Assembly (NCBI GenBank): GCA_030650275.1
Contig: JAUSEK010000011.1
Coordinates: 73,890 to 137,889, forward strand
From: Candidatus Omnitrophota bacterium
Lineage (GTDB): Bacteria; Omnitrophota; Gorgyraeia; Zapsychrales; Fredricksoniimonadaceae
Direction: 5' to 3'
DNA: 64,000 nucleotides
Shown here: in pieces, positions 32,359 to 52,543 of the stretch
Layout: each line of letters begins with the position of its first letter
Numbering within the stretch: the stretch's first letter is position 1
Notes under the pieces: generated by a model
What the model was told of the DNA's origin: nothing
Database searches by the model: none
The model's input: the letters and a program-made list of their open reading frames with translations, nothing else
Made by a program: the position numbers and the translations under genes

Positions 32359-33984
32359 ATGAATGTTTTGGGGATCCACTGTGCGTTCTCTCATTTGAAC
32401 CATGATCCAAGCGCGGCCTTGATCTGCGATGGGAAGTTAATAGCCTTGGGTGAAGAAGAGCGCTTTACAAGGATCAAAGGGGCCAGAGGATTACTCCCTT
32501 TTTTCAGCATCCGGTTCTGCCTGAAACAGGCCGGATTAAAGATGGAAGATATTGATCTGGTTGTTTCGACCGGAGAAACGATCAAGGAACAATTGGACAA
32601 TAATGTGAAGTTGTTTTTCAAGCATTATTTCGGAGTGGTCCCGCCCATTCAATACATTAACCATCAGTTCTCTCACCTGGCTTCCGCCTTTTTTTATTCT
32701 GGATTCGATCGGTCCATGTGCATCTCTTATGACGGCCGGGGAGATGATTTGAGCGGAATGCTTGCGGTGGGTTCTTCCAAGGGGATCAAAGTATTGGAAA
32801 AGATGCCGATCAAGGATTCCGTGGGGCTTTTTTATTGCGCCGTAACTCAATTTTTGGGGTTTCGGCAAGCCCAAGATGAATACAAGGTGATGGGGCTGGC
32901 TTCCTTTGGAAAAGAAGGGGAAGATATCAGTTCTCTCGTGAGAATTTCCGATGATGGTTATTCTGTCCGTCAGGAGAATTTTGGCCACCCGTTCCCGATC
33001 AGAACTTTGGACGAGCCGATCTATAATGAAAACCTTATTCGCGCGCTGGGAACCCCCCGCCGTTTCGGTGAGCCCATCACGGACAGGCATAGAAATCTTG
33101 CTTTTGCCGTTCAAAGATCCTTGGAAGAATGCGTCGTGCGCCTTGTTAAACGGCTGCATGCCAAGACAGGATTGGATTCCTTATGCATTGCCGGCGGAGT
33201 TGGATTGAATTGCTCGGCTAACCGGATCATTCATCAATTGCCGTTTATCAAGCGGTTATTCGTGCAGCCGGCCGCTTCGGACAGGGGGTTATGTTTAGGC
33301 AATGCCTTGGTAGGCGCTTATGAAAATGGCGAGAAGATAGAATTGCCGGGACATGTGTTTTTTGGCCCTAGCTATACCAATGGGCAATTGTTAAGCGCCC
33401 TTAAGTTAACGGGGCAGGACTATATTGAGCTTCCGGACCCGGGGACAAAGGCCGCGGAAATGTTGGCTGAAGGTAAGATCATCGGATGGTTTCAGGGCCG
33501 GTCTGAATTTGGTCCGCGGGCGTTGGGTAACCGTTCTATTTTGGCTGATCCCCGCTCGATCAAGATGAAAGATGAGATCAATGCCCGAATTAAGTTTCGC
33601 GAAGAGTTTCGTCCTTTCGCGCCGGCGGTGCTGGAGGAGCGGGCTTCGGAGGTCTTCGAGATGGATCAACCATCCCCCTACATGACGGTTACTTTTACGG
33701 TGCGCCCCCACTGGGTAGAGAAGCTGCAGGCCGTCACCCATGTCGACAAGACGGCCAGGGTACAGACGGTGAGTAAGGAAACGAACCCGTTATTCCACGG
33801 TTTGATCGCGGCTTTTGGCCGCTTGACCGGAGTTCCCGTGGTATTAAATACCAGCTTTAACGCCCGGGGAGAGCCCATTGTGGAGACTCCATTGGATGCC
33901 CTGGCGACTTTTTCATCCGTCGGGATGGATGCTCTTTTTCTGGGGCCATACCTGATCACGAAGCCAAAACCACCCAGGCGGTAG
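32359..33984 (+). CDS. NodU/CmcH-family O-carbamoyltransferase
   Basis: MNVLGIHCAFSHLNHDPSAALICDGKLIALGEEERFTRIKG is the characteristic N-terminus of this family. 541 aa, two-domain length. Confidence 0.8.
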   Translation: MNVLGIHCAFSHLNHDPSAALICDGKLIALGEEERFTRIKGARGLLPFFSIRFCLKQAGLKMEDIDLVVSTGETIKEQLDNNVKLFFKHYFGVVPPIQYINHQFSHLASAFFYSGFDRSMCISYDGRGDDLSGMLAVGSSKGIKVLEKMPIKDSVGLFYCAVTQFLGFRQAQDEYKVMGLASFGKEGEDISSLVRISDDGYSVRQENFGHPFPIRTLDEPIYNENLIRALGTPRRFGEPITDRHRNLAFAVQRSLEECVVRLVKRLHAKTGLDSLCIAGGVGLNCSANRIIHQLPFIKRLFVQPAASDRGLCLGNALVGAYENGEKIELPGHVFFGPSYTNGQLLSALKLTGQDYIELPDPGTKAAEMLAEGKIIGWFQGRSEFGPRALGNRSILADPRSIKMKDEINARIKFREEFRPFAPAVLEERASEVFEMDQPSPYMTVTFTVRPHWVEKLQAVTHVDKTARVQTVSKETNPLFHGLIAAFGRLTGVPVVLNTSFNARGEPIVETPLDALATFSSVGMDALFLGPYLITKPKPPRR

Positions 33985-33991
33985 AAAAAAA

Positions 33992-35209
33992 ATGAAAGAT
34001 ATCGGTCAGGGGCCAATAAGGAAGTTATATCAGTGTCTTTTGGTCCCTCCGGCTGTCCTGATCGCCATAGGTATACGGATATTGCGGCCATTGATCGTTG
34101 TGCGATGGGGAAGGATCGACATCGCAAGGATAGGCGGAATATACCGGGCGGATTGGTACCTGTCTTTGTATCATGGCCGCATGTGCAGGGATAAATACTT
34201 TGATATTTTTTACTTCGATTGGTCCGGGGTCGTCGGCAACAGCCAATGGTGGGCGATGTGGAAGCGAGTTTTGCGTATTTTTCCATTCGGAGGATTGGCA
34301 AAACTCGTCGGGAGGATATCATGCATATTGCCAGGGGATAAGCTTTACATTGTTCCGGTGATGGATGCCACTCCATCAACGATCAGCGAGCATCAAGATA
34401 TTCTTAAGCGCATCCTTGAACATAAAGAACCTAATGTTGCTTTTACTCCGCAAGAAGAGCATTTTGGCCATCAAGAGATTCGGGGGTTAGGCATACCAGA
34501 AAAGGCCCCCTTTGTCTGTTTTCATGCCCGCGACGCGGCATATCTGGACGCCGTATATCCTGATAGAAGTTGGGGTTATCACGATTATAGAGATTCCAAT
34601 ATTTTTAATTATCTTCCTGCGGTCGAAGGACTTGCCCGGCGAGGTTACCATGCGGTTAGAATGGGCAGCACGGTGAAGGACAGGTTGCCCGCGTCGAACG
34701 CGGCCATTATCGATTACGCCGCCAATGGAAGCCGAACAGATTTTTTGGATGTTTATTTAGGAGCTAAGTGTCATTCTTTTTTATGCTCCGATACCGGGAT
34801 GTCTATTATCCCGGAGGCCTTTAAGCGTCCTGTTGTTTACGTGAATTGGGTCCCGATCCAGCGGATATCGATCTGGGTTTCAAACGGGATATTCATCTTC
34901 AAAAAATTCTACTCTGTGAGCAAAAAGCGTTGCTTAACGTTTAGTGAAATAATTCAGTCCGGCCTGGGGAACTGTTGGGATGGCAGAGATTTTGAAAAGA
35001 ATGAAATAGAATTAAGAGAGAATAGCCCGGAAGAGATCATGGCGCCGGTCTTTGAAATGGAGGATCGTCTTAAGGGCAAGTGGAAGGCTGGGCCTGAAGA
35101 CGAAGAGCTGCAGAGGCGTTTTTGGGCATGTTTAGGGTGGGATAATCTAAATCCTAACGTAAGGATCGGGGCCGAATTTTTGCGTCAAAATCAGGATCTC
35201 TTGAACTGA
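33992..35209 (+). CDS. Hypothetical protein, putative glycosyltransferase of the TIGR04372-like family (distant KpsS/KpsC-like); paralog of 39303-40901
   Basis: No classic GT motif I recognise. Shares conserved blocks with the 39303 paralog (VCFHARDAAYLD / VCLHVRESGWND; IDYA; VVYVNWVP / VVMTNCLP). Family assignment is from memory and uncertain. Confidence 0.35.
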   Translation: MKDIGQGPIRKLYQCLLVPPAVLIAIGIRILRPLIVVRWGRIDIARIGGIYRADWYLSLYHGRMCRDKYFDIFYFDWSGVVGNSQWWAMWKRVLRIFPFGGLAKLVGRISCILPGDKLYIVPVMDATPSTISEHQDILKRILEHKEPNVAFTPQEEHFGHQEIRGLGIPEKAPFVCFHARDAAYLDAVYPDRSWGYHDYRDSNIFNYLPAVEGLARRGYHAVRMGSTVKDRLPASNAAIIDYAANGSRTDFLDVYLGAKCHSFLCSDTGMSIIPEAFKRPVVYVNWVPIQRISIWVSNGIFIFKKFYSVSKKRCLTFSEIIQSGLGNCWDGRDFEKNEIELRENSPEEIMAPVFEMEDRLKGKWKAGPEDEELQRRFWACLGWDNLNPNVRIGAEFLRQNQDLLN

Positions 35210-35286: not shown

Positions 35287-37023
35287 ATGAAGATTTTAGT
35301 TGTCGTCCCCAAGTATGAACCAGATATTGAAAAAACAGGAGCGCCGTATTTCTTACCATTAGGGCTCATGTATGTTTCATCCTATTTGAAACAAAAGGGT
35401 TTTGATGTCCAGAATTTGAATCTTAACCATTATACAGATAATAAATTGCGGACGGTCCTTCAAGAGCAACCGTTCGACGCGATTTGTACGGGAGGTTTGT
35501 TTACGGAAATCAAACCTATTATGACCGTGATCCAGACAACGCGTGATGTGCGGCCCCATGCAAAAATAATTCTGGGAGGCGCTTTGGCCAGCGGGGACCC
35601 TGAATTTGCTTTGGAAAAAGTTGGCCCGGATTTTTTGGTATTAGGAGAGGGAGAGGCAACGTTGGCGCATCTTCTGGGTACCCTTAGAGATGGTTTGGAT
35701 TTAAAAGAGGTTAAGGGGATCGCCTATTTGAAAGATGGCACTATGTTCAAAACGTGCGGCCGGGAACTGATCTCGGATCTGGATAGTCACCCCTGGCCTG
35801 ATTATGAAGGTTTTGAATACAGGCATCACCTTGATCATCATTATGAAAAGGATTCATGTTTTGAAACGGTGATGGATCCTGCAAAACGGCGTATCGCCAA
35901 CATCATTACGAGTAGAAATTGTGTGGCCAAATGCACTTTTTGCTATCGGTTGATGACGGGCGGCCATCGGGTTCGCACCATTGAGAACGTTATGAAAGAA
36001 GTCAAGTTTTTGATGGATGAATACGGTGTTAATGAAATCAATTTGATCGACGAGATGTTTGCCAATGACAAACAACGTATTTACGATTTTTGTGAAGGGA
36101 TCAAACCGCTCAATGTCCGTTGGCAATGCCAGTTGAGATGCGGCGTTATTGATGAAAATGTGTTAGCGGCAATGAAAGACGCCGGTTGTCGTTATATCAG
36201 TTATGGATTTGAAAGCGCCAGTAAAGAGGTTTTAAAAAGTATGAAAAAAGGGCTTCACCCGACACAAATTGACAATGTTATCCGTTGGACATTAAAAGCA
36301 GGCATCACGATCCAAGGGAATTACATATTCGGGGACCCGGCCGAGACTTTAGGGACGATGGAAGAGACCCTTCGTTTCAGGCGGAGATTCCCGGCGCTTA
36401 ATTTGGGGATGTTTATGATCATCCCCTATCCCGGGACAGTCCTTTACCACGATTTAAAGGCAAAGGGAAGGTTTGAAAACCTGTATGATTTTTACATTAA
36501 CCCAAGTTCGGTGTTTCAGGGCAGACCCTTGAATATGACTAAATTGTCCGAAGACGATTTTGATTATATGTGTAAGAAGGTTTGGCATGAGGGAATTGTC
36601 TCGGTTGCTTATACAAAGATCCTCGGATCCAAACATCTTGATAAAATGACTTCATTGGTCAGTTATAAATGTCCCCATTGCTTAGAAATGCATAAAGACA
36701 TACCGATAACATTTTCTGGCAATGATGCGGAAACCCGTTTCTGTAAAAAATGTCTTCAGAGAGTGCATATAAAGAAATCATCCGTGTATTTTGATCTATA
36801 TGCCAAACTTCGCGAGTTTTATCACTACGCCATAGTCACCCCGGTCCTTATTCATCCAAAAGTTTATAAGACATGTAATCCTTTAATCAATCTTTTTAAA
36901 GGAACCGGAAAGATCGGGAAATTGATCAAACTATGCTTAAAGACAAGCAGACCTAAGGTGGTCCCTAAATTTCAAACTACGGCTTTAGAATTGCAAGGAG
37001 AGCTGGTGGCGTCTAAGGCATGA
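35287..37023 (+). CDS. B12-binding-domain radical SAM enzyme (class B radical SAM, methyltransferase-like) with C-terminal Cys4 ribbon
   Basis: N-terminal B12-binding Rossmann (KILVVVPKY...ICTGGLF). CxxxCxxC (SRNCVAKCTFC). C-terminal CPHC...CKKC. Confidence 0.8.
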   Translation: MKILVVVPKYEPDIEKTGAPYFLPLGLMYVSSYLKQKGFDVQNLNLNHYTDNKLRTVLQEQPFDAICTGGLFTEIKPIMTVIQTTRDVRPHAKIILGGALASGDPEFALEKVGPDFLVLGEGEATLAHLLGTLRDGLDLKEVKGIAYLKDGTMFKTCGRELISDLDSHPWPDYEGFEYRHHLDHHYEKDSCFETVMDPAKRRIANIITSRNCVAKCTFCYRLMTGGHRVRTIENVMKEVKFLMDEYGVNEINLIDEMFANDKQRIYDFCEGIKPLNVRWQCQLRCGVIDENVLAAMKDAGCRYISYGFESASKEVLKSMKKGLHPTQIDNVIRWTLKAGITIQGNYIFGDPAETLGTMEETLRFRRRFPALNLGMFMIIPYPGTVLYHDLKAKGRFENLYDFYINPSSVFQGRPLNMTKLSEDDFDYMCKKVWHEGIVSVAYTKILGSKHLDKMTSLVSYKCPHCLEMHKDIPITFSGNDAETRFCKKCLQRVHIKKSSVYFDLYAKLREFYHYAIVTPVLIHPKVYKTCNPLINLFKGTGKIGKLIKLCLKTSRPKVVPKFQTTALELQGELVASKA

Positions 37024-38409: not shown

Positions 38410-39309
38410 ATGGTCCCCAAAACAGCCATCATCGGAGCATCAGGATTTATCGGAAAGGCCCTTTTATCTCTCCATCGCGAGACGCATCCGGACTGTGTCG
38501 GAACGGCTTTGAACCGATTGAAGGGAGATTTGAAACATCTGGACCTGCTTTCCTGCGACATTGCTTCCTTAAAACTTGCTGAGTCCGGGCATCAGGATGC
38601 GATCATTACGGCAGGGATAGCACGGATCCATGTCCCCCAGAAAGAAAAAGAATATACAAAAAAAGTCACCCAAGGGACGTTAAAGATCATTCAACAGCTT
38701 GTGGATGAAGGGATCAAGCCCATATACATTTCCAGTGAATGTGTTTTTGATGGACGCACGGGAAACTACGACGATGACGCGCCGGTGAACCCGATCAACG
38801 GATATGGACAACAGAAGGCGGAAATAGAACAAGGCATCCGGGAAATTTCTAAAGGCAGGTATCTGATCGCCCGGTTCAGCAAGGTTTTTACCATTGAAAA
38901 GAAAGATGGATCTATTTTTGATGAAATGGCGGCCGCGTTGACATCAGGCGGCACAATACGCGCGGCATACGATCAAATTTTTTCACCGACGCTTTTGTCT
39001 GATGCCATCAACGCCCTGAAAATATTACAAACGAAGAACGCGACAGGGATTTTTAACATCAGCACGACCGAAGTGTGGTCACGGTATGATCTAGCTTTAA
39101 TAATGGCCGATCATTTAGGGGTCGGCCATGAAAAAGTTGAGAAAATATCCCTGGATGATCTTAAGGAGGTCATCAATAATGAAGTTTTTAATCGTCCCAA
39201 GAATACGAGTATGAATGTCATGAAATTGATCAGGGAAACAAAGAGCACGTTTACGCCGATCTCCCAATGCATGGAGATCATAGCGAAAAATTGGACAACC
39301 CCATGTTGA
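38410..39309 (+). CDS. RmlD-like NAD(P)-dependent 4-ketoreductase (dTDP-4-dehydrorhamnose reductase family)
   Basis: IIGASGFIGKAL...SSECVFDG...NPINGYGQQK (YxxxK) pattern. Confidence 0.65.
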   Translation: MVPKTAIIGASGFIGKALLSLHRETHPDCVGTALNRLKGDLKHLDLLSCDIASLKLAESGHQDAIITAGIARIHVPQKEKEYTKKVTQGTLKIIQQLVDEGIKPIYISSECVFDGRTGNYDDDAPVNPINGYGQQKAEIEQGIREISKGRYLIARFSKVFTIEKKDGSIFDEMAAALTSGGTIRAAYDQIFSPTLLSDAINALKILQTKNATGIFNISTTEVWSRYDLALIMADHLGVGHEKVEKISLDDLKEVINNEVFNRPKNTSMNVMKLIRETKSTFTPISQCMEIIAKNWTTPC

Positions 39310-40901
39310 TCTCTTTCCTTCGGCGTCAGATGCTCCACATGAAAGAGGGGGGCATGCGCGTTTTTGGTCAAAAGGTAAGAAATTTATTTAAGTTCTTATA
39401 TATGAGCCTCTTGGCCCCGGCGGCTGTTTGCCTAAAAATTGATTGGCCTGAGGCCTATTATTTTGTTTTGCTTCGTATGTATAAGCAACATAAAGACATT
39501 TGTTTAAATCCTGCCTGTGACAGCAATTTAAGCAAGCGTATTAAATTAAAAAGAAAGATCGTTTATTGTATTAAAAAATACATCGCGCATGAACCGAGTT
39601 TGACTGATCTTTCCGTTTTTATATCAGCGAGCACCCTCCTGATCAATTTTTGTTATACCGGTCAAGAATTCGTAAGATCCATGGGTATTTTACGGAATAC
39701 TGAAAAAATGAGACGCCGGATATTGAAAGATCACCAATTGGATGAGCTTGGTTTTGAATTTATTCCCAGGGCTTTTGCCACAGGGAGCATCGGCGCCTGG
39801 GAGATCCTCGGGGTCCATATAAAAATGGGGATCCTTGGATTGAAGACCCCTAAAAAATTGGTGTTATTGCTTGATCCTGAAAGTCGTGTTAATAATCCCT
39901 GTTATTTAAAATACTGGCGCCAGTATATCACTGTTATCTCTGATCCATTATTGATTCAGGCGCTTTCTCCTTTGGAAAAATGCATGACCGTTCCGATCAA
40001 TTATTATATGTCGTTCCAAGGAAGGGTCATGTTGAGCCCGCAAGCCCTTGGATTCGTGCGAAAACAATGGAATGAAGAAAAGCGTCCGGCTCTTCTCAAG
40101 CTTTCCGATGATGATTTTGTGAAAGGATGGAAGCGCTTAAGCTCTTTAGGCGTCCCGAACCACGCATGGTTTGTCTGTCTTCATGTGAGAGAATCAGGAT
40201 GGAATGACAATAGCCACGCGGGGAACTTTCGCAATGCGGATATTAAGACCTATGTGCCGGCCATAAAGGCCATTGTTGATGCCGGGGGGTGGGTGGTCCG
40301 TATGGGAGACCTCGGAATGACCCCATTGCCGCCGATGGACCATGTGATCGATTATGCCCATAGTGATGCGAAAAGCGATTGGATGGACATTTTCTTGTGT
40401 TCGCAATGCCGTTTCCTTGTAGGAACATCTTCGGGAGTGCATACAATATCTTTAGTTTTCGGCGTACCTGTTGTCATGACAAACTGTTTGCCGGCCGCGG
40501 CGATGTACCAGTTCACTGTGAATGACCTGTTTATCCCAAGGCTTTGTCTGTCTAAAGATGACGATCATTATCTAAGTTTCCGTGAATTGATGTGTCCTCC
40601 TGTCAGCATGGGTGCCGAGCAGTATGTTTATGACAGGCTTAATCTTAAAGTCATGGAAAATACACCGGAAGAGATCAAGGATATCGTGATGGAAATGTTG
40701 ATGAGGGAAAGCGGCACTATTCAATATAGTCAAGAAGATGGATCTCTGCAGGAGCAGTTCAGGTCTTTGTCAGCCCGTTGCGGTGCATTATACGGAGATG
40801 ACGATATTGTTGTCCATGCCAGGATGGGGCGGGATTTTTTGCGAAAATATGCCGGGCTTTTACCCGTTGGTATGATGGAAGAATGCCGGAATAAAGGATA
40901 A
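39303..40901 (+). CDS. Hypothetical protein, second TIGR04372-like putative glycosyltransferase with N-terminal extension
   Basis: Paralogous blocks with the 33992 protein (see there). Start is uncertain (39267/39303). Confidence 0.35.
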   Translation: MLISFLRRQMLHMKEGGMRVFGQKVRNLFKFLYMSLLAPAAVCLKIDWPEAYYFVLLRMYKQHKDICLNPACDSNLSKRIKLKRKIVYCIKKYIAHEPSLTDLSVFISASTLLINFCYTGQEFVRSMGILRNTEKMRRRILKDHQLDELGFEFIPRAFATGSIGAWEILGVHIKMGILGLKTPKKLVLLLDPESRVNNPCYLKYWRQYITVISDPLLIQALSPLEKCMTVPINYYMSFQGRVMLSPQALGFVRKQWNEEKRPALLKLSDDDFVKGWKRLSSLGVPNHAWFVCLHVRESGWNDNSHAGNFRNADIKTYVPAIKAIVDAGGWVVRMGDLGMTPLPPMDHVIDYAHSDAKSDWMDIFLCSQCRFLVGTSSGVHTISLVFGVPVVMTNCLPAAAMYQFTVNDLFIPRLCLSKDDDHYLSFRELMCPPVSMGAEQYVYDRLNLKVMENTPEEIKDIVMEMLMRESGTIQYSQEDGSLQEQFRSLSARCGALYGDDDIVVHARMGRDFLRKYAGLLPVGMMEECRNKG

Positions 40902-40919: not shown

Positions 40920-42716
40920 ATGAAAAATTTAAGGAAGATCTGGTTTTTATTGACGCTGGATAACCCCAGGAAGCTGTATATCACGGTGATCGCGATCGTC
41001 GTCATGTCATTATTCGATATGATGGGGGTTGCGTCCATATTCCCGTTTTTGAGCGTCATGTCAGACCCCGAGATCATTCACAAGAGCCATAAGATCGCAT
41101 GGGCATACGATCGGTTCGGGTTTACAAGTATAAACTCCTTCCTCATCGCCTTGGGCACGGCCTCTTTTGTCATCCTGATCGTCAGCAATGTCCTGCGCGC
41201 GGTCACCATGAAGTCCCTGATCCGGTTCACCTGGATGAAGCATCAAAGCATTGCCAAACGATTATTGGCCCAATACCTGTATGAGCCGTATGCTTTTTTT
41301 CTCAATCGCAACAGCTCTGAACTGACCGCTTATCTGATGTCGGAGGTGGCCCGTGTCGTCACCGGAACGCTGATCCCCTGCATGCAGATATTCGCGAGGT
41401 TTTTGCTGATCATCTTTATCCTTGGGCTTTTGTTCCTGGTGAACCCCCTGGTGGTCTTGCTGGTCCTGGGGGTGATCGGAGGGGGTTATGCCGCGATCTA
41501 TTTGTTCTTCCGCAACCGCATCGCCCGTACCGGAGAGGATTTTCAAAAACACAGCAAGATCATGTATAAGACCCTCAACGAGGCCTTTGGAGGGATCAAG
41601 GACGTTAAGCTCATGGGCAAGGAACATATCTTTATTGAGCAATATGCCACCCAAGCCAAACAGATCATCCATTGCTATTGTTCACAATTTTTGATCGCCC
41701 AGCTGCCCCGTTATGCCTTTGAGGCGGCCGCGTTCGGCGGGATCCTGATCATCATGATGTACATGGTCATCGTCACAAAAGATTATCAGCAGATCGTTCC
41801 GCTGGTCGGCTTGTATGCGCTGGCGGCTTATCGGCTGATGCCCGCTTTACAGCAGATCTTTCAGGACATCACCTCCGTGCGCTTTAGCCGTTCAGCCCTG
41901 AATGTGGTTTATAACGATTTTACGCAATGCGCGTATAAGGACCGCGAGCCGATCACCCCCGGAACAGAGCGGCCCTTGCCGTTCTCCAAAAGCATTGAAT
42001 TTCGCAAGCTGACGTTCCAATATTTTAAAGCGTCCAAGCCCGTTATTGAGGATTTTGATCTCCTGATCAATGCCAATACGACGATCGGGCTGGTCGGCAG
42101 TACCGGGGCCGGCAAAACGACGATCATTGATATTCTGCTTGGCCTCCTGGTCCCCCAGAAAGGGGACATTCTCGTCGATGGCGAAAAAGTGGATGAGAAA
42201 AATATCCGCGGCTGGCAGAAAAATCTGGGCTATGTTCCCCAGCACATTTATCTGTGCGACGACACGGTCACGCGCAATATCGCCTTTGGCGTGCCGGACC
42301 ATGAGATCGATGCGCAGGCGGTCCGGCGCGCGGCCTTGCTTGCCAATATCCATGATTTTGTTGAAAAGGAATTGCCTGATGGATATGAAACGGAAGTGGG
42401 CGAACGCGGGATCCGTTTGAGCGGCGGACAAAGGCAGCGCATCGGGATCGCCCGGGCCCTGTATCACAACCCTCCGGTCATCGTGTTTGATGAGGCAACG
42501 AGCGCCCTGGACGGCATCACGGAAGAGGTCATTTTGGAGGCGATCCATCATCTGGCGCATAGGAAGACCATCGTGATCATCGCGCACCGGCTGGGCACGG
42601 TGAAGGAATGCGATTGTATTTACCTTCTGGAACAGGGCCGGATCGTGAACCAGGGCACTTACCAGGAACTGCTGGCGAATGACCAGCGGTTCCGCAAGAT
42701 GGCCAAGGTGGCCTGA
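40920..42716 (+). CDS. ABC exporter, fused transmembrane plus ATP-binding domains (MsbA/PglK-like type I exporter)
   Basis: Six N-terminal TM helices. Walker A GSTGAGKTT, signature LSGGQRQR, Walker B VIVFDEATSALD. Confidence 0.85.
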   Translation: MKNLRKIWFLLTLDNPRKLYITVIAIVVMSLFDMMGVASIFPFLSVMSDPEIIHKSHKIAWAYDRFGFTSINSFLIALGTASFVILIVSNVLRAVTMKSLIRFTWMKHQSIAKRLLAQYLYEPYAFFLNRNSSELTAYLMSEVARVVTGTLIPCMQIFARFLLIIFILGLLFLVNPLVVLLVLGVIGGGYAAIYLFFRNRIARTGEDFQKHSKIMYKTLNEAFGGIKDVKLMGKEHIFIEQYATQAKQIIHCYCSQFLIAQLPRYAFEAAAFGGILIIMMYMVIVTKDYQQIVPLVGLYALAAYRLMPALQQIFQDITSVRFSRSALNVVYNDFTQCAYKDREPITPGTERPLPFSKSIEFRKLTFQYFKASKPVIEDFDLLINANTTIGLVGSTGAGKTTIIDILLGLLVPQKGDILVDGEKVDEKNIRGWQKNLGYVPQHIYLCDDTVTRNIAFGVPDHEIDAQAVRRAALLANIHDFVEKELPDGYETEVGERGIRLSGGQRQRIGIARALYHNPPVIVFDEATSALDGITEEVILEAIHHLAHRKTIVIIAHRLGTVKECDCIYLLEQGRIVNQGTYQELLANDQRFRKMAKVA

Positions 42717-42727
42717 AAAAGGGGACT

Positions 42728-43504
42728 ATGAAAAAAAACATATTAAAAACGAAATTGGCCAAACATCAACAAACTCTTGGGTGTTGGGTCACGCTGGCGC
42801 ATCCCTTGATCCCTGATATCCTGGCGCCGGCAGGTTTTGACTGGCTTGCGGTGGACATGGAGCATAGTTCCATCGGCCTGGGAGAGCTTTTGCCCCTTAT
42901 CATTTCCATTGAACATAGCGGGATGGTGCCCTTGGTGCGTGTAGGAGAGAACGATCCTAATCTTATTAAGCGTGTCATGGATGCGGGGGCTTACGGCGTG
43001 ATCGTCCCTAATGTGAATACGGCCCGTGAAGCACAGGCGGCGGTGAACGCGGTGAAATATCCTCCGCAGGGGACTCGCGGAGTAGGGCTTTATCGGGCCC
43101 AAGGGTATGGCCGGCAATTTGAGGCCTATAAGAAGTGGGTGGCCCAAGAGAGCGTGGTCATTATCCAAATTGAACATATTGATGCGGTCAATCATATTGA
43201 GGCCATTTTTTCTGTTGGGGGCATTGATGCGTTTCTCGTCGGTCCCTATGATCTTTCCGGGTCCATGGGCATGCCCGGGGCATTGACCCATCCTAAGGTT
43301 GAGGCCGCGATCAAAAAGGTTTTGGCGGCGGCGAAGAAATATAAGATCCCTGCCGGGTACCATTCCGTTTCAGCGGACCCAAAGATGGTCCTTAAACGCG
43401 CGAAGCAGGGATTTAAGTTTTTGGGTTTCAGCCTGGACTCCATATTTCTTGGCACGGCGGCGGCCGATGCCATGGCTGTCGTCAAGAAAGGCATGAGAAA
43501 GTGA
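42728..43504 (+). CDS. HpcH/HpaI-family class II pyruvate aldolase
   Basis: VRVGENDPNLIKRVMDAGAYGVIVPNV...YPPQGTRG pattern of HpcH/HpaI/KDR aldolases. Poly-A8 at codons 2-4. Confidence 0.75.
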   Translation: MKKNILKTKLAKHQQTLGCWVTLAHPLIPDILAPAGFDWLAVDMEHSSIGLGELLPLIISIEHSGMVPLVRVGENDPNLIKRVMDAGAYGVIVPNVNTAREAQAAVNAVKYPPQGTRGVGLYRAQGYGRQFEAYKKWVAQESVVIIQIEHIDAVNHIEAIFSVGGIDAFLVGPYDLSGSMGMPGALTHPKVEAAIKKVLAAAKKYKIPAGYHSVSADPKMVLKRAKQGFKFLGFSLDSIFLGTAAADAMAVVKKGMRK

Positions 43505-44412
43505 AGATCACCATCAACACTTCTTCTTTCGCGCAGGGTGATATTCAGCCGCTGGAAAGATTGCGCGCCAAGGGCATTGTGCCTGTTATGAATCCGCATA
43601 AGAAAACGATGACCGCCAAGCAGGTCATTGAGTTTTGCGCGGATGCCGATGGGATGATCGCGGGGACAGAGCCGTTGACCACGGAAGTTCTGGCGCAATT
43701 ACCATTGTTGAAGGTCATTTCCCGTTGCGGGACAGGGCTGGATCATATTGATCTGAAGGCGGCCCAGGCCCGGGGGATTAAGATTTTTAATACTCCTACA
43801 GCTGTGATACAGCCGGTTGCGGAACTGGCTGTAGGCCTGATGCTTTCTCTTTTGCGTCAGACCAATGCCATGGACCGCAACCTTCATGCCGGTATGTGGG
43901 ACAAGAAGATGGGGCATCTGCTGAATGGTAAGACGGTGGGGATCGTGGGGTTCGGGCGTATCGGGCAGAAGATCGCGGAGCTTCTGTTACCATTCGGCGT
44001 AGAAATTCTTTATACAGATCTCCGGGAAATAAAAATTTCTTTGAAGAGCATGCGGGTCAATTTAGATGAGCTTCTGAAACGTTCGGACATTGTCAGCCTG
44101 CATCTTTCCATGGAAGAGGGGAGATCTGTCATGAACGCGCCTCAGTTTTCTCTAATGAAAAAAGGCGCGTGGTTCTTGAATCTTTCCCGCGGAGAGGCCG
44201 TTGATGAGAACGCGCTTTATACTGTTTTAGAAAATGGGCATTTGGCAGGCGCGGCCCTGGATGTTTTTGGTCAAGAGCCCTATCAAGGGCCTCTTCAAAC
44301 ATTGGACAATGTTATTTTAACCCCGCATATCGGTTCCTATGCGCAGGAGGCGCGCGTTCTCATGGAGCAAGAGGCGGTTGAGAATCTTTTAAAAGGGCTG
44401 AATATCATTTGA
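43501..44412 (+). CDS. D-isomer-specific 2-hydroxyacid dehydrogenase (phosphoglycerate dehydrogenase-like)
   Basis: NAD-binding GKTVGIVGFGRIGQKIAELL and catalytic region typical of the D-2-HDH family. GTG start overlaps the upstream stop. Confidence 0.8.
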   Translation: MKITINTSSFAQGDIQPLERLRAKGIVPVMNPHKKTMTAKQVIEFCADADGMIAGTEPLTTEVLAQLPLLKVISRCGTGLDHIDLKAAQARGIKIFNTPTAVIQPVAELAVGLMLSLLRQTNAMDRNLHAGMWDKKMGHLLNGKTVGIVGFGRIGQKIAELLLPFGVEILYTDLREIKISLKSMRVNLDELLKRSDIVSLHLSMEEGRSVMNAPQFSLMKKGAWFLNLSRGEAVDENALYTVLENGHLAGAALDVFGQEPYQGPLQTLDNVILTPHIGSYAQEARVLMEQEAVENLLKGLNII

Positions 44413-44422
44413 GGGGAATCAT

Positions 44423-45301
44423 ATGAAAGCGATTGTTTTTGGAGGCGCAGGATTCTTGGGAAGTCATGTGGCGGACGCGTTGACGGATGCCGGATACGCG
44501 GTCACTATTTTTGACCGTAATCATTCGCCGTATGCGCGTTCTGATCAGAAAATGGTCGTTGGTGACATCCTGGACCGCCAGGCCGTGAATGACGTGGTCC
44601 GCGGCGCGGATGTTGTTTATAATTTTGCCGGGATCGCGGAGATCGATGAGGCGGCCCAGCATCCTTTTGACGCCGTGCAGGACAATATTGTTGGGAATAC
44701 AACAGTGCTTGAGGCCTGTCACGGAGCAAAGGTCAAACGTTTTGTTTTCGCGAGTTCTCTTTACGTGTACGGCAAAAGCGGTTCTTTTTACCGCAGCACC
44801 AAACTTGCCTGTGAACTTCTGATCGAGAATTATCATGAGGTCTACGGGCTTTCGTATACGATCTTGCGCTATGGTTCGTTGTACGGCCCGCGTGCGGGGG
44901 ACACGAACGCGATCCACCGTTTTGTCAAACAGGCGCTGACAGAGGGGAAGATCGTCCGTCATGGCGATGGCGATGAGTTGCGCGAATATATCCATGTTTT
45001 AGATGCCGCAAAGGGGAGTGTGGCCATTTTGGCGGATGAATTCAAGGACCAGAATGTGATCTTGACCGGCCAGCAGCAGATGCGGATGCGCGATTTTCTC
45101 ACGATGATCCGTGAGATCATGGACAATAAAGTGGCGGTTGAATATGTTCCGGCCACAGAGTCCTATCATTATGAAATTACGCCATATACCTTCATGCCCA
45201 AGATGGGCAAACGCCTTGTGCAACCTACGTATTTTGATCTCGGACAGGGGATTTTGGATGTTATTCACAGCATGTCCAGGGAGTTGAATTCACCTGTTTA
45301 A
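44423..45301 (+). CDS. NAD-dependent nucleotide-sugar epimerase/dehydratase
   Basis: MKAIVFGGAGFLGSHVADAL...YxxxK. Confidence 0.7.
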   Translation: MKAIVFGGAGFLGSHVADALTDAGYAVTIFDRNHSPYARSDQKMVVGDILDRQAVNDVVRGADVVYNFAGIAEIDEAAQHPFDAVQDNIVGNTTVLEACHGAKVKRFVFASSLYVYGKSGSFYRSTKLACELLIENYHEVYGLSYTILRYGSLYGPRAGDTNAIHRFVKQALTEGKIVRHGDGDELREYIHVLDAAKGSVAILADEFKDQNVILTGQQQMRMRDFLTMIREIMDNKVAVEYVPATESYHYEITPYTFMPKMGKRLVQPTYFDLGQGILDVIHSMSRELNSPV

Positions 45302-45323
45302 GTAGATGTTGAAAGGTTTAAGG

Positions 45324-45980
45324 ATGATCAAGGCCTTGATTTTTGATTTTGACGGGGTAATTCTTGAATCGGTGGATGTGAAGGGCTGGGCATTCCAAAA
45401 GATCTTTGAGGGCTATCCCCAGCGGCAAGAGCAGATCTTAGCCTACCATTATGAGCATGGGGGATTACCACGGGCGAATAAGATCCGGCATATTTTGAAG
45501 GAAATTTTAAAACTTTCTTATGATGACGCGATCGTCGCGCAATATTGCGAACGTTTTGGAGAGCTTGTTTTTAAAAGGGTCGTTGATTCACCCTTTGTCC
45601 CCGGCGCCCGCGAGGCATTGGAGGCCTTTCAAGGGCGCTTTTTGACCTTTGTTGTCTCCGGAACACCTCATGAAGAGATGAACCGCGTTGTGGATGCCAG
45701 GGGTTTGCGTTCCTGTTTTTCCGCTGTTTATGGTTCGCCGGTGATGAAGGATGAACGGACAGGAATGATCTTGGCCGAACACGGCCTTGCCCCGCGGGAG
45801 GTCCTTTGGATCGGCGATGCGACAAGCGACCTGCGGGCCGCGGCAAAATACGGGATCCGTTTTGTCCTGCGTTCCTGGCCGGGCAATGAAGGGATATTTC
45901 GTCATGCCAGGGCCGATTTCAGGATGAATGATCTCACAGGCCTGCCGTCTTTGATCCAACAATTGCAGGAGAAAAAATAG
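45324..45980 (+). CDS. HAD-superfamily hydrolase (beta-phosphoglucomutase/phosphatase subfamily)
   Basis: Motif I LIFDFDGVIL. Later GDATSD motif. Confidence 0.7.
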   Translation: MIKALIFDFDGVILESVDVKGWAFQKIFEGYPQRQEQILAYHYEHGGLPRANKIRHILKEILKLSYDDAIVAQYCERFGELVFKRVVDSPFVPGAREALEAFQGRFLTFVVSGTPHEEMNRVVDARGLRSCFSAVYGSPVMKDERTGMILAEHGLAPREVLWIGDATSDLRAAAKYGIRFVLRSWPGNEGIFRHARADFRMNDLTGLPSLIQQLQEKK

Positions 45981-46759
45981 TGAATATCGTAGGCGTCATT
46001 CCGGCCCGTATGAGCGCGTCGCGGTTCCCGGGAAAACCTCTGGCCAAGATCTGCGGACTGCCCATGATCGAGCATGTTTATAAACGCTGCGCGATGTCCT
46101 CCATTTTATCGGACCTTTATGTCGCGACTTGCGATGAAGAAGTTTTCAAGGCAACAGAGGCCTTCGGGGGGCGGGCGGTGATGACCAGCGATTCCCATCA
46201 ACGGGCCTCTGATCGCGTGGCTGAAGCTGTGGGGAAGATCGAATCTTCCAGCGGGCGGAAAATGGATATTGTGGTGATGATCCAGGGGGATGAACCCATG
46301 GTGTTCCCGGAGATGATCGACATGGCTGTTGGTCCGCTCATTAAGGAAAAAGATATTTTTGTGGCCAATCTGACGGCCGCCATCACCTCCAAACAAGAGC
46401 ACGAAGACCCCAACTGCATTAAGGTCGTCGTTGACCGTCACTTCAATGCCCTTTATTTTTCACGTCAACCGATCCCTTTTTTCAAAGGCCCCGCCGCTCC
46501 TCTGACGCTGTATAAACAAGTGTGCATTATCCCGTTTAAACGCGATTTTCTTTTTACATACTCCGCGCTGGAACCAACGCCGCTTGAAAAGGCGGAGTCC
46601 GTTGATATGCTGCGCGTCCTGGAGCATGGGTATAAGGTGCGCATGGTGCCTTTTGATCTGCTGACCTTTAGCGTGGACACGCCGGAAGACCTCGTGCGCG
46701 TGGAGGCATTGCTGTGTCAGGACCCGTTGAATGCCCAATATAATAAAAAAGGGAAATGA
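45980..46759 (+). CDS. Cytidylyltransferase of the KdsB/NeuA family (CMP-ulosonic acid synthetase-like)
   Basis: VIPARMSASRFPGKPL compares with the KdsB pattern IIPARyaSTRLPGKPL. 259 aa. Confidence 0.65.
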   Translation: MNIVGVIPARMSASRFPGKPLAKICGLPMIEHVYKRCAMSSILSDLYVATCDEEVFKATEAFGGRAVMTSDSHQRASDRVAEAVGKIESSSGRKMDIVVMIQGDEPMVFPEMIDMAVGPLIKEKDIFVANLTAAITSKQEHEDPNCIKVVVDRHFNALYFSRQPIPFFKGPAAPLTLYKQVCIIPFKRDFLFTYSALEPTPLEKAESVDMLRVLEHGYKVRMVPFDLLTFSVDTPEDLVRVEALLCQDPLNAQYNKKGK

Positions 46760-46760
46760 T

Positions 46761-47696
46761 ATGCCGGGCAAGCGTTATTTAGTGACAGGGGCAGCGGGAT
46801 TCATCGGCGCCGCCGTTGCCGGCAAGCTTTTAAATAACGGGCATGAGGTCTGGACGATCGATAATCTGTCCACGGGTTTTGAAGCCAATGTCCCGAAAGG
46901 TGTCCGTTTGATCAAGGGGAATTGTCAGGATCCAGAGATCATTGCCCAGCTTGAAGGCACACAGTTTGACGCCATCGTGCATATCGCCGGGCAATCATCG
47001 GGCGAGATCAGCTTTGATGATCCCGCCTATGACCTGCGCACGAATACCGAATCAACCCTGCGTTTGATCCAGTTCGGTCTTGGCACCGGCTGTGACCGTT
47101 TTGTTTATGCGAGTTCAATGTCCGTGTATGGTCCTGTGCCCGAGACAGCCATTCCGGAAACCCATGAACCCAAGCCGCTTTCTTTTTACGGAGTAGGAAA
47201 ATTAGCGAGTGAACATTATTTACGGATCTATCAGACCAAGGGCCTGAAATCCACGGCGCTTAGGTATTTTAATGTCTATGGCCCCTGTCAGAATATGCAA
47301 AATTTACGGCAAGGCATGGTCAGTATTTTTTTGGCCCAACTGATCAAGCACGACAAGGTGGTTGTCAAAGGCCCCCTGGACCGGTTCCGCGACATGATCT
47401 ACATTGATGATATTGTCAACAACACGATCAAGGTCATTGATCATCCGGGGACGTTCGCAGGAGTGTTCAATTTCGGTACAGGCGTGAAAACAACGGTGGG
47501 AGAGCTTTTGGAATTGATGATGAAACTCGGCAAGATCAAGAAAGAGATCGTCATTGCCGCCGGGACGCCGGGCGATCAAAAAGGGATCTACGCGGATATT
47601 TCCCTGGCCCGTGATACATTCGGGTTCAAGTGTGACTGGACCCTGGAGCAGGGGCTGACGAAAATGGTCCACTGGGCTAAAACAGCGCGATGGTAA
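46761..47696 (+). CDS. NAD-dependent nucleotide-sugar epimerase/dehydratase
   Basis: YLVTGAAGFIGAAV...YxxxK (YGVGK). Confidence 0.75.
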   Translation: MPGKRYLVTGAAGFIGAAVAGKLLNNGHEVWTIDNLSTGFEANVPKGVRLIKGNCQDPEIIAQLEGTQFDAIVHIAGQSSGEISFDDPAYDLRTNTESTLRLIQFGLGTGCDRFVYASSMSVYGPVPETAIPETHEPKPLSFYGVGKLASEHYLRIYQTKGLKSTALRYFNVYGPCQNMQNLRQGMVSIFLAQLIKHDKVVVKGPLDRFRDMIYIDDIVNNTIKVIDHPGTFAGVFNFGTGVKTTVGELLELMMKLGKIKKEIVIAAGTPGDQKGIYADISLARDTFGFKCDWTLEQGLTKMVHWAKTARW

Positions 47697-47707
47697 AGGC
47701 GGTTGTT

Positions 47708-48613
47708 ATGAAACCGGAGTGCCGGTTTTGCAAAGCGGGCAGTGCGGCCCAGTCCATTAAGGGAAAGAACGTGTACGGCGGCCGGCCGGACCAGCATTTC
47801 TGGCTGTGCGCGGAGTGCGGGATCATTTATCTTGATCCGCCTTTGAATGAGGATGAAGAACTTGATTTTTATAAGAAAGAATTTGAGAAGTTCATGGAGC
47901 GCCGCGCGGGGAGCGATATGGACTGGAGCGGTCCGGACCAGCATGTCCGGTCTAATCAACGGGAGGTCAAACGCCGCATGCCGTTCTTGGCCAGGCATCT
48001 GAAAGCGGGAGAGCGTGTTTTGGAGATCGGATGTTCATCCGGATTCATGTTGAGCGCCTTGCGGGAGAAGGGTTTGAACGTGACCGGTTTAGACCCCTCC
48101 GGGGGGTTTATGGATTATGTGCGGGCCAAAAAGATCCCTGTATTCCAGACCCTGGACGAACTGAAAGCGGCCGGCGCCCGAAATTTTGACGCGATCATTC
48201 ATTATTATGTTTTTGAACACATCCGTCATCCCCTTGATTTTATCAAGCAATACATGGAACTTCTTAAAGACGGGGGCCTCATGATCTTTGAAGTGCCTTG
48301 CGCCACCGACCCTCTTGTTGAGCTTTATAAGGTCCCGGCATTTGATGAGTTTTACTGGTCGGTCGCGCATCACTGGTATTTTACCCGCGATAGTTTGGGG
48401 AAGGTCCTTAAAAAGGCGGGGGTTGCTTTCGAGCTTTACCCGGACCAGCGTTATGATATTTCCAATCATATGACGTGGATGCTCGACGGCAAACCCGGCG
48501 GCTTGGCCCGCTGGAGCGCCGCTTTTGGAGAGGCGCTGGACCAACAGTACAAAGAACGCCTGAAAGAATTGTGGCTTTGCGACACCATTATTGCCGTTTT
48601 GAAAAAGACATAG
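47708..48613 (+). CDS. SAM-dependent methyltransferase with N-terminal zinc-ribbon
   Basis: CRFC...CAEC ribbon. Motif I VLEIGCSSGF. Alternative start at 47690. Confidence 0.6.
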   Translation: MKPECRFCKAGSAAQSIKGKNVYGGRPDQHFWLCAECGIIYLDPPLNEDEELDFYKKEFEKFMERRAGSDMDWSGPDQHVRSNQREVKRRMPFLARHLKAGERVLEIGCSSGFMLSALREKGLNVTGLDPSGGFMDYVRAKKIPVFQTLDELKAAGARNFDAIIHYYVFEHIRHPLDFIKQYMELLKDGGLMIFEVPCATDPLVELYKVPAFDEFYWSVAHHWYFTRDSLGKVLKKAGVAFELYPDQRYDISNHMTWMLDGKPGGLARWSAAFGEALDQQYKERLKELWLCDTIIAVLKKT

Positions 48614-48617
48614 AGAT

Positions 48618-49277
48618 ATGAAACTTCTGGCGATCATAGCGGAAAAGATGTATCTTCTCGCCCCCTTACGTCCGTTTGCCTTGCGTCTTTTAAAGAAGTC
48701 GCGGAAAAATGAGCTGGATAATGACCGCCTGCGTTCTATTTTTAAGAAGTATCATGGCGTTGAGATCGGCGCCTATAGTTATGGAGGGTGTTTTGACCCC
48801 AACAAGGTCCCGTCAGGGACAAAGATCGGCCGGTTTTGTTCATTTGCGGATGAAGTGATGATCATCCCGACGGACCATTTGGTTTCAGCGGTCTCAACGC
48901 ATCCGTTTTTGTTTAAACCGCATCTTGGGTTCATTGAAAAAGACCCGCGTCCTGCGCATGATTTAGAGATCGGCAACGATGTTTGGGTGGGGTATCGGGC
49001 TGTGATCCTCCCCGGGGTCAGAAGGATCGGCGACGGGGCCATCCTGGCCGCCGGCTGTGTGGTGACAAAGGATGTGCCTGCCTATGCGGTCATGGCCGGT
49101 GTTCCGGCCAGGGTCATTAAATACCGTTTTAACGAAACGATCGTGAAACGGTTATTGGAGGTCCGTTGGTGGAATTGGCCGGCGGAAAAGATCTTTTCCA
49201 AGGCCAGGGTTTTTTTGGATCCGGATGAATTTATGAGACGGGAGGGAATGGATGAGTTTAAAAAGAAAGGCCTTTGA
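48618..49277 (+). CDS. Hexapeptide-repeat (left-handed beta-helix) acetyltransferase, Vat/CatB-like sugar O-acetyltransferase
   Basis: Hexapeptide repeats ([36 protein letters not shown]). Confidence 0.7.
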   Translation: [219 protein letters not shown]

Positions 49278-51886: not shown

Positions 51887-52543
51887 ATGAGAGGGGTTGG
51901 TCATAAAAAGTGGATCGATGTCACGGTGCCTATTTGTCACGGGATGATCTCTTGGCCCAGTGATCCTCCCGTGGAAATTTCGCGGTACAAATGTATCGGC
52001 AGGAATGGGCAATTGAACAACGTTGCCTTATTGAAGATGGGGAGCCATACAGGCACGCATATTGATGCTCCCAGGCATTTTTTGAAAGACGGCCTGACCG
52101 TAGATGCCATGAGCCCTGAACTTATGGTGGGGCCTGTGAATGTTATTCAGATCAAGGACCCCGTTGCGGTCCGTGCCGCACAACTTAAAGATCAAGGAAT
52201 AAGACCGGGACAAAGGATCATTTTAAAGACGCGGAATTCTTCCACTCAATGGTGGCATAAAGGATTTAATAAGGATTTTGTATATTTGACATTGGAGGCC
52301 GCCGAATTTTTGGCCTCCCGACGGGTCAAATTGGTGGGGATCGATTACCTTTCCGTTGGCGGTTACAAACACGAAGACGGCGGTAAGGTCCATAAGGCCT
52401 TGCTGGAGCGTGGGATATGCATTGTGGAAGGCCTGGCTCTTTGTGATGTAAGGCCGGGACTTTATGATATAATGTGCCTTCCGATGAAGATAGGACAGGG
52501 GGACGGGGCCCCGGCCCGGGTTTTATTGCGCAAGAAGAGATGA
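51887..52543 (+). CDS. Cyclase-family protein (kynurenine formamidase/arylformamidase-like fold)
   Basis: GSHTGTHIDAPRHF is the signature metal-binding motif of the cyclase (KynB-like) family. Confidence 0.7.
   Translation: MRGVGHKKWIDVTVPICHGMISWPSDPPVEISRYKCIGRNGQLNNVALLKMGSHTGTHIDAPRHFLKDGLTVDAMSPELMVGPVNVIQIKDPVAVRAAQLKDQGIRPGQRIILKTRNSSTQWWHKGFNKDFVYLTLEAAEFLASRRVKLVGIDYLSVGGYKHEDGGKVHKALLERGICIVEGLALCDVRPGLYDIMCLPMKIGQGDGAPARVLLRKKR

Follow-up and report, generated by a model that had tools for sequence, protein, structure and literature searches.

The locus described here raises the question of whether an activated acid sugar can be built without either of the synthases that serve the known pathways. 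Keto-acid sugars activated with cytidine monophosphate (CMP), such as Kdo (3-deoxy-D-manno-octulosonate) and sialic, pseudaminic and legionaminic acids, are of central importance for an intact envelope, for escape from immunity and for recognition by phages; to our knowledge, all known routes to them use a KdsA or NeuB synthase that depends on phosphoenolpyruvate (PEP). The stretch analysed, hereafter the window, comprises 64,000 nucleotides (nt) of a Candidatus Omnitrophota contig (JAUSEK010000011.1, positions 73,890 to 137,889) and holds a five-gene module that begins with an aldolase gene and ends with a cytidylyltransferase gene. We propose, with a probability of roughly 0.55, that this module is a self-contained route that relies on a class II aldolase and yields, in CMP-activated form, a 2-ulosonic or 2-ulosaric acid that is neither Kdo nor a nonulosonic acid.

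Pfam and NCBIfam profile searches, by which families were assigned to the open reading frames (ORFs) of the window, agree with an earlier note on this DNA that had named the same five families between 42728 and 46759:

42728-43504, plus strand: ALD, class II (metal-dependent) 2-oxoacid aldolase of the HpcH/HpaI family (PF03328, 125 bits)
43501-44412, plus strand: HADH, short NAD-dependent D-2-hydroxyacid dehydrogenase resembling phosphoglycerate dehydrogenase (PGDH) (PF02826 2-Hacid_dh_C, 182 bits; PF00389 2-Hacid_dh, 85 bits)
44423-45301, plus strand: SDR1, extended short-chain dehydrogenase/reductase (SDR) of the epimerase/oxidoreductase type, short at 292 amino acids (aa) (PF01370 Epimerase, 163 bits)
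45306-45980, plus strand: HAD, haloacid dehalogenase-type (HAD-IA) phosphatase (Pfam HAD_2/Hydrolase, 59 bits)
45980-46759, plus strand: CMPT, KdsB-like cytidine triphosphate (CTP):ulosonate cytidylyltransferase (PF02348 CTP_transf_3, 152 bits)

The five ORFs overlap or are separated by at most 10 nt (the start of HADH and the stop of ALD overlap by 4 nt), and on inspection the catalytic residues and motifs are intact in all five proteins, among them GxxGxxG and YxxxK in SDR1 and DxDG (DFDGV) and GDxxxD in HAD, a phosphatase with weak similarity to phosphoglycolate phosphatases. An ORF survey shows the window to be a single plus-strand glycan biosynthesis cluster; between 38 and 56 kb, promoter-like and terminator-like sites are not enriched relative to shuffled sequences, and therefore nothing suggests separate transcription units. 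No KdsA-type (DAHP_synth_1), KdsC or KdsD protein was found among those plus-strand ORFs of the window that encode 150 aa or more; the scan covered all of them except the one at 62255-62980.

Conservation of the aldolase with a cytidylyltransferase

We scanned one genome per GTDB species for the aldolase and analysed the best 80 of 336 relatives found, giving a set of 81 loci whose ORFs were called, clustered and typed by cluster with Pfam and NCBIfam. Co-occurrence was counted in the 44 full-flank loci, that is, those with at least 7 kb on both sides, and a cytidylyltransferase was counted if it lay on the same strand within 9 kb. A CTP_transf_3 cytidylyltransferase accompanies the aldolase in all 44 loci, across more than 20 phyla: a KdsB-like enzyme in 32, typically as the next gene downstream of the aldolase, and a NeuA/PseF-like enzyme in 24, typically just upstream. 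The NeuA-like enzyme is the sole type in 12 loci (about a quarter), and none of these 12 has a NeuB gene nearby on the same strand; therefore, the NeuA-like enzyme serves the aldolase product there. NeuB lies within 9 kb in 9 of the 44 loci, and HADH is present in 39. Such recurrence of one gene set across dozens of phyla places the grouping far outside what chance would give. The comparison of genomic contexts suggested in the earlier note supports its central idea, namely that the logic of ulosonic acid pathways (condensing a 2-oxo acid with an aldehyde, dephosphorylating, activating with CTP) is here built from other enzyme families.

The bacterial carriers belong to Omnitrophota, Planctomycetota, Thermodesulfobacteriota, SAR324, Dehalococcoidia, Patescibacteria, Elusimicrobia, Nitrospirota, Nitrospinota, Acidobacteriota, Bacteroidota, Spirochaetota, Campylobacterota, Gamma- and Alphaproteobacteria, Bdellovibrionota and Peptococcaceae, and the archaeal carriers to Methanoregula, Methanomethylovorans, Nitrososphaeria, Micrarchaeota and Woesearchaeota. 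Among complete genomes, the module is present in the cultivable Sulfurimonas sp. CS5 (NZ_CP180409.1, at about 741-750 kb) and in OZ245742.1 and OZ252023.1. The module is therefore present in taxa without lipid A-Kdo: archaea, bacteria of the candidate phyla radiation (CPR), Dehalococcoidia and Peptococcaceae. In every locus examined it lies in a glycan cluster, together with glycosyltransferases and Wzx or ABC exporters.

The two middle genes are less constant. SDR1 and HAD, the set found in the window ("type A"), occur in 22 of the 44 full-flank loci; in their place, 17 loci carry a "type B" set consisting of a Gfo/Idh/MocA oxidoreductase with a GmhA-like SIS protein and/or an inositol monophosphatase-family (IMPase) protein (for example L030, L032, L034, L041, L054, L068, L043, L057 and L061; the MocA member is IolG-like), and no locus has both sets. 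Counted singly, a HAD phosphatase is encoded in 23 full-flank loci and an IMPase in 11. The conserved core thus consists of the aldolase, the PGDH-like dehydrogenase and the cytidylyltransferase, and SDR1 with HAD is one of two mutually exclusive accessory sets; the earlier note's inclusion of an epimerase and a HAD phosphatase in the pathway holds for this module and for half of the loci, not for the core. Some type B loci also have an SDR resembling FabG, together with an "AroB-related sugar phosphate phospholyase (cyclizing)" of TIGR04425 (439 bits vs. a cutoff of 400).

The window shares an 11-gene block with another Omnitrophota contig at 32-79% protein identity (ALD, HADH, SDR1, HAD, CMPT, a second SDR, a methyltransferase, a hexapeptide acyltransferase, a methyltransferase, a cyclase and a 590-aa protein), in which only the last two genes are swapped. 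The module also extends to predicted viral contigs: four of them, from IMG/VR, encode an aldolase 37-40% identical to ALD and keep the trio of ALD, CMPT and HADH. The trio is found at 8001-10404 of locus L086 and in loci L087-L089, one of these contigs being 188 kb long; in L086 it adjoins NeuB, two formyltransferase-like genes, a methyltransferase and a sulfotransferase, and beside it lies a gene whose 579-aa product weakly matches Capsule_synth (KpsC/KpsS-like). No close homologue of ALD was found among INPHARED phages, and a paper reporting kdsA and kdsB in a cyanophage could therefore not be connected with the module.

Two further cytidylyltransferases of the CTP_transf_3 family are encoded in the window, each near a NeuB pathway:

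12294-13040: CTP_transf_3 cytidylyltransferase, beside a PseB/PseC/PseH/NeuB set with NeuB at 16468-17502
62255-62980: CTP_transf_3 cytidylyltransferase near the window end, followed past that end by genes for a MocA oxidoreductase, an aminotransferase, an epimerase, a GNAT protein, a second NeuB and amidotransferases (L090, 3351-8966)

One synthase is accordingly matched with one cytidylyltransferase three times: NeuB at 16468 with the enzyme at 12294, ALD with the enzyme at 45980, and the second NeuB with the enzyme at 62255. As both NeuB pathways own an activating enzyme, the KdsB-like CMPT is left for the aldolase product, and the arrangement implies three distinct CMP-activated acid sugars in one glycan locus of more than 75 kb. 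The earlier note's claim that the module relies on no dedicated synthase of the NeuB or KdsA type fits both this bookkeeping and the lack of KdsA among the scanned ORFs.

The presence of two NeuB pathways in the same cluster invites another explanation, in which the module is a side-chain factory: the dehydrogenase, the phosphatase and the methyltransferases would make an acyl group of the glyceroyl or di-O-methylglyceroyl type for the pseudaminic or legionaminic acids of the cluster, and CMPT would activate the modified nonulosonic acid. Nonulosonic acids bearing glyceroyl and 2,3-di-O-methylglyceroyl groups are known in Campylobacter, two methyltransferase genes follow the module, and glycerate or hydroxypyruvate could readily be made by a PGDH-like enzyme working with a phosphatase. 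We nevertheless consider this explanation rather improbable: only 9 of the 44 full-flank loci have a NeuB gene nearby, and each NeuB of the cluster is already served; the conserved set includes no acyl-activating enzyme or carrier protein; CMPT is KdsB-like, not PseF/LegF-like; and the universally conserved aldolase would be left without a role.

Enzymes of the module and the proposed route

KdsB- and NeuA-type enzymes attack CTP through the C2 hemiketal hydroxyl of the sugar, and CMP is a leaving group only at the ketosidic carbon. We aligned 54 aldolase-linked homologues of CMPT with the KdsB proteins of E. coli and V. cholerae and with KpsU (E. coli numbering is used throughout). CMPT keeps R10, R15, K19, Q98, D100, R157 and D235, and the residues for CTP and Mg2+ (R10, R15, K19, Q98, D100 and D235) are kept in 52-54 of the 54 homologues. 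A 2025 study of KdsB describes Q98, H181, Y185, D100 and D235 as Kdo ligands or active-site residues, with Y185 as the ligand of O5 (PMC12199768). H181 is replaced by Q in 53 of the 54 homologues, Y185 by I in 48, and S74 by R in 50; LEQLR of KdsB becomes VDMLR (E210D/Q211M) in 52; and among the best 120 database homologues of CMPT the Q..I signature is found in 118 and DM in all 120. LEQLR is a conserved motif of KdsB. Judged from these alignments, CMPT belongs to a distinct specificity subfamily with a changed sugar pocket; the outcome that the earlier note had named as fatal to its proposal, an ordinary KdsB, is at odds both with the replaced Kdo-contacting residues and with the occurrence of the module in taxa without lipid A-Kdo.

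An ordinary CMP-Kdo pathway would require ALD to work as a Kdo aldolase in reverse, joining pyruvate and D-arabinose, the phosphatase and the SDR to supply the arabinose, and CMPT to be a functional KdsB or KpsU serving a glycan that contains Kdo. The similarity searches point that way: the best PDB match of CMPT is the capsule enzyme KpsU (1GQ9, 165 bits) and all its PDB matches are KdsB or KpsU; it passes the NCBIfam cutoff of TIGR00466 (167.6 bits vs. 155.2); its homologues are named KdsB or "CMP-KDO synthetase" in databases, even in Dehalococcoidales and Peptococcaceae; and one viral locus has the Capsule_synth-like protein beside the trio. Such a pathway is nonetheless unlikely, since H181, Y185 and LEQLR are replaced in essentially the whole CMPT family, about a quarter of the full-flank loci make do with a NeuA/PseF-like enzyme, characterised HpcH aldolases act on C2-C4 aldehydes (that is, of two to four carbons), and many organisms whose envelopes contain no Kdo carry the module.

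HADH has P. horikoshii PGDH as its best PDB match (1WWK, a type III PGDH; 200 bits), and its catalytic Arg/Glu/His triad is present in all 59 aligned sequences; its score against the SerA equivalog model TIGR01327 is 211 bits, short of the cutoff of 454. A phosphatase gene follows HADH in 28 of 43 cases, and an IMPase gene comes directly after it in 10 of the 14 loci with an IMPase. The closeness of HADH to PGDH and the phosphatase gene that usually follows it point to precursor supply upstream of the aldolase. HADH and the phosphatase are thus more probably concerned with precursor supply than with reduction of a 2-keto group: the pair looks like a SerA and SerB unit without the aminotransferase, with hydroxypyruvate or a comparable free 2-oxo/hydroxy acid as its output. 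The tautomer of hydroxypyruvate, tartronate semialdehyde, is the natural reaction partner of pyruvate for GarL.

The earlier note had instead proposed a 2-keto reduction, with a 3-deoxy-aldonic or otherwise reduced acid as the product. On that reading HADH would reduce the aldol product at C2, and a 3-deoxy-aldonic (2,4-dihydroxy) acid would be cytidylylated. The gene order, with HADH overlapping the end of ALD, and the membership of HADH in the conserved trio are in keeping with this, and a CMPT that lacks the ring-hydroxyl ligands of KdsB could suit an acyclic substrate. The proposal is hard to credit on chemical grounds, because the nucleophile of these enzymes is the C2 hemiketal hydroxyl, CMPT retains every residue for attack by the hemiketal O2, and no donor chemistry is known for a CMP monoester at a secondary carbon that is not anomeric; the coupling of HADH to a phosphatase, and the five loci that keep aldolase and cytidylyltransferase without it, likewise argue against a reduction step. 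We therefore regard a reduced product as unlikely.

The best PDB matches of ALD are GarL (1DXE, 152 bits), HpaI and YfaU; also among the matches is 6R62, an HpcH-family "hydroxyketoacid aldolase" that uses hydroxypyruvate as nucleophile. ALD stays under every NCBIfam equivalog cutoff, at about half of those for HpaI (180 bits vs. 369), GarL/RhmA (175 vs. 407 and 140 vs. 441). All 21 aligned family members have H46 of the DxEH motif, R71, E149 and D175; the DxEH His, the equivalent of Arg70 and the Glu/Asp pair are the established catalytic residues and metal ligands of HpaI-type enzymes. There are 6971 homologues at E<1e-20, the best of them 65-91% identical. By sequence, the ALD family is a separate, tightly conserved clade within the HpcH/HpaI superfamily, and ALD is the proposed synthase of the acid sugar. 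The idea that a catabolic GarL/GhrB-type pair and a housekeeping KdsB merely sit by chance in a polysaccharide cluster, which database names such as "2-dehydro-3-deoxyglucarate aldolase" (for ALD homologues) and "CMP-KDO synthetase" would encourage, has in effect been refuted by the comparison of loci: the genes form a single operon with overlaps, they are associated in 44 of 44 loci and on viral contigs, the catabolic cutoffs are missed by about half, and Pfam typing of the window ORFs revealed no glucarate, galactarate or hydroxyphenylacetate genes near the module.

An aldolase-based route to a new acid sugar, as we propose it, would run in six steps. HADH and the HAD phosphatase would turn a phosphorylated D-2-hydroxyacid of central metabolism into a free C3-C4 2-oxo or hydroxy-oxo unit, in the most economical case 3-phosphoglycerate into hydroxypyruvate or its tautomer tartronate semialdehyde; ALD would add pyruvate (or hydroxypyruvate), as a metal-bound enolate, to an aldehyde, giving a 4-hydroxy-2-oxo acid, a 3-deoxy- or 3-hydroxy-2-ulosonic or -ulosaric acid of about C6-C7 that cyclises to the hemiketal; SDR1 would adjust a stereocentre or the oxidation state; CMPT would attack CTP with the C2 hemiketal hydroxyl to yield the CMP-sugar; a second SDR (SDR2), two methyltransferases and an acyltransferase encoded downstream would tailor it; and a GT-B protein, also encoded downstream, would install it in an O-antigen-like glycan. 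A C6-C7 product is proposed because hydroxypyruvate or tartronate semialdehyde would be supplied, GarL is the closest solved aldolase and 6R62-type enzymes are among the matches. The families, the intact catalytic residues, the operon layout, the conservation across phyla and the altered pocket of CMPT are observed; every substrate, the sequence of reactions, what HADH does and which protein is the transferase are inferred. Full-text searches of the open literature, with subscription-only papers outside them, turned up no account of HpcH aldolases at work in CMP-sugar or glycan pathways.

Several observations weigh against this route. CMPT passes the cutoff of the NCBIfam KdsB subfamily model NF009905 (300.8 bits vs. 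255) and may therefore act on Kdo itself. The arginine of the "VRS" motif of PGDH (R54 in human numbering), which binds the substrate anion, is deleted in 56 of 59 HADH sequences; therefore, 3-phosphoglycerate may not be the substrate of HADH, and we rejected ordinary 3-phosphoglycerate dehydrogenase as a firm identity. Five of the 44 full-flank loci lack HADH, which is therefore not strictly essential. The GT-B assignment of the candidate transferase is generic. In the searchable literature, finally, ulosaric acids are described only from plants and algae, and no glycan with a short ulosaric or ulosonic acid from the carrier taxa was found.

Neighbouring genes and the rest of the cluster

The genes for the later steps of the proposed route follow CMPT directly, and a glycosyltransferase and an exporter gene precede ALD:

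39267-40901, plus strand: glycosyltransferase of the TIGR04372 family (about 230 bits vs. a cutoff of 45); membership in the module uncertain
40920-42716, plus strand: PglK/MsbA-like ABC exporter (PglK, 333 bits, under the cutoff); membership in the module uncertain
46731-47696, plus strand: SDR2, SDR resembling GalE and heptose epimerases (PF01370, 168 bits)
47690-48613, plus strand: MT1, S-adenosylmethionine-dependent methyltransferase, tailoring (Methyltransf_23, 87 bits); syntenic with SDR2 in related loci
48618-49277, plus strand: hexapeptide-repeat acyltransferase, tailoring (Hexapep, Vat/CatB-like); syntenic in L001 and L004
49252-50091, plus strand: MT2, second methyltransferase, tailoring (Methyltransf_23); a 63% identical orthologue holds the same position in L004
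50096-51871, plus strand: 591-aa GT-B fold protein, candidate transferase (no Pfam match; TIGR04326, a weak 46 bits)
51887-52543, plus strand: hydrolase of the cyclase/arylformamidase family (PF04199, 87 bits)

SDR2 comes directly after CMPT and is followed by MT1 in L001, L004, L011, L027, L060, L072, L082 and L083, and its probable role is tailoring of the activated sugar. The 591-aa protein is 100% identical to protein Q7K71_03390 of an Omnitrophota metagenome-assembled genome. Its AlphaFold2 model (mean predicted local distance difference test score, pLDDT, 91.7) retrieves only GT-B glycosyltransferases and 2-epimerases in Foldseek (E about 1e-9), and 8 distinct ALD loci encode its C-terminal domain; it is a reasonable candidate for the transferase of the new sugar. 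A type B relative of this protein faintly resembles a glycosyltransferase model of the Tannerella BFO_1060 family. The cyclase-family hydrolase belongs to a cluster (c7) present in 20 ALD loci.

Homologues of the upstream glycosyltransferase and exporter pair also sit upstream of ALD in L028. We considered whether the TIGR04372 protein corresponds to the "PFTS_polysacc" gene found upstream in relatives, and rejected this, as it has no match in those loci; the "PFTS_polysacc" protein of L004 is likewise unrelated to the 591-aa protein and to a 691-aa protein of the window. A second TIGR04372 protein (226 bits vs. the cutoff of 45) is encoded at 33992-35209, after the Pse and carbamoyltransferase genes, and both copies are without a Pfam match.

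The 691-aa protein (13606-15681, no Pfam or NCBIfam match) lies between a PseH-like GNAT gene and the NeuB region. It resembles, by eye only, ORFs of about 680 aa (cluster c27) in five aldolase loci, which in L009 and L016 come right after the aldolase on its downstream side; a C-terminal "PFRDG.AA.RMG.YL.W" motif, also seen by eye, is common to both. Elsewhere in the cluster, a transketolase-like enzyme split into a pair, a Methyltransf_13/14 sugar C-methyltransferase, a carbamoyltransferase and a radical SAM enzyme that binds B12 (26184-27961, 30313-31563, 32359-33984 and 35287-37023) suggest chain-extended or C-methylated, carbamoylated sugars. At the head of this cluster with its B12-dependent radical SAM enzymes, a 505-aa protein (540-2057) carries, of the domains of methionine synthase, just those for B12 binding and reactivation, without the homocysteine and folate domains, and is followed by a gene of a periplasmic binding-protein family (2064-2972); the 505-aa protein may be an accessory for cobalamin handling or reactivation. 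Two fusions complete the inventory: an HldE-like protein (19713-21245) with an N-terminal cytidylyltransferase-like domain and a C-terminal PfkB kinase, the reverse of the domain order in E. coli HldE, and a 720-aa protein (7899-10061) that joins an RmlD-like reductase to a DegT/PseC-type aminotransferase.

Significance and comparison with known systems

The module is widespread and consistently misannotated as "KdsB" plus "glucarate aldolase". It is possible, and we put it forward tentatively, that it represents a third biosynthetic logic, so far overlooked, in which a class II pyruvate aldolase, supplied by a PGDH-like dehydrogenase with a phosphatase, builds a short C6-C7 ulosonic or ulosaric acid directly from central C3 metabolites for activation by a dedicated enzyme derived from KdsB or NeuA; the sugar would adorn cell surfaces in more than 20 bacterial phyla, several archaeal lineages and some viruses. 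If our reading is true, microbial glycobiology would gain a new class of monosaccharide, a sugar so far absent from glycan databases; thousands of "KdsB" and "GarL" entries, some of them from organisms without lipopolysaccharide (LPS), would have to be reassigned; biocatalysis would gain an HpcH aldolase that acts in anabolism and a cytidylyltransferase whose specificity is changed; and the gene set would serve as a genomic marker for glycans as yet unknown in Omnitrophota, Planctomycetota, CPR bacteria and other uncultured phyla.

The Kdo pathway (KdsD-KdsA-KdsC-KdsB, with KpsF/KpsU for capsules) is like the module in that a 2-keto acid sugar is made, a phosphate is removed, and a CMP monoester is formed by a last enzyme of the KdsB/KpsU family with the same catalytic residues. 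In the module, however, the carbon-carbon bond would be formed by a metal-dependent HpcH aldolase instead of the PEP-dependent KdsA; the phosphatase is HAD-IA or IMPase rather than KdsC; a PGDH-like dehydrogenase is added; the cytidylyltransferase is without the Kdo-contacting residues; and the module is also found in organisms without LPS.

With the nonulosonic acid pathways (NeuB/PseI/LegI with NeuA/PseF/LegF), the module shares the one-to-one association of a CTP_transf_3 enzyme with a synthase in glycan clusters, the NeuA/PseF-like enzyme that stands alone in 12 of the aldolase loci, and the methyl- and acyltransferase tailoring downstream. In contrast, its synthase is not of the NeuB family, and the conserved set is without the dehydratase acting on UDP- or GDP-linked N-acetylhexosamine (HexNAc), the aminotransferase and the acetyltransferase steps; the product is probably nitrogen-free and shorter than C9.

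The phosphorylated serine pathway, with SerA and the HAD phosphatase SerB, offers the parallel of a PGDH-like dehydrogenase genetically coupled to a phosphatase, whereas the module has neither the aminotransferase nor R54 and employs an IMPase-family phosphatase in other lineages. GarL, HpaI, RhmA/YfaU and the 6R62 aldolase, for their part, have the same fold, metal ligands and catalytic Arg and His as ALD, at about 35-45% identity, and the substrates of GarL, pyruvate and tartronate semialdehyde, would fit a precursor derived from 3-phosphoglycerate. Unlike these catabolic enzymes, ALD belongs to a biosynthetic context, the glycan cluster, where it would run in the direction of condensation, pulled by CTP-dependent activation of its product.

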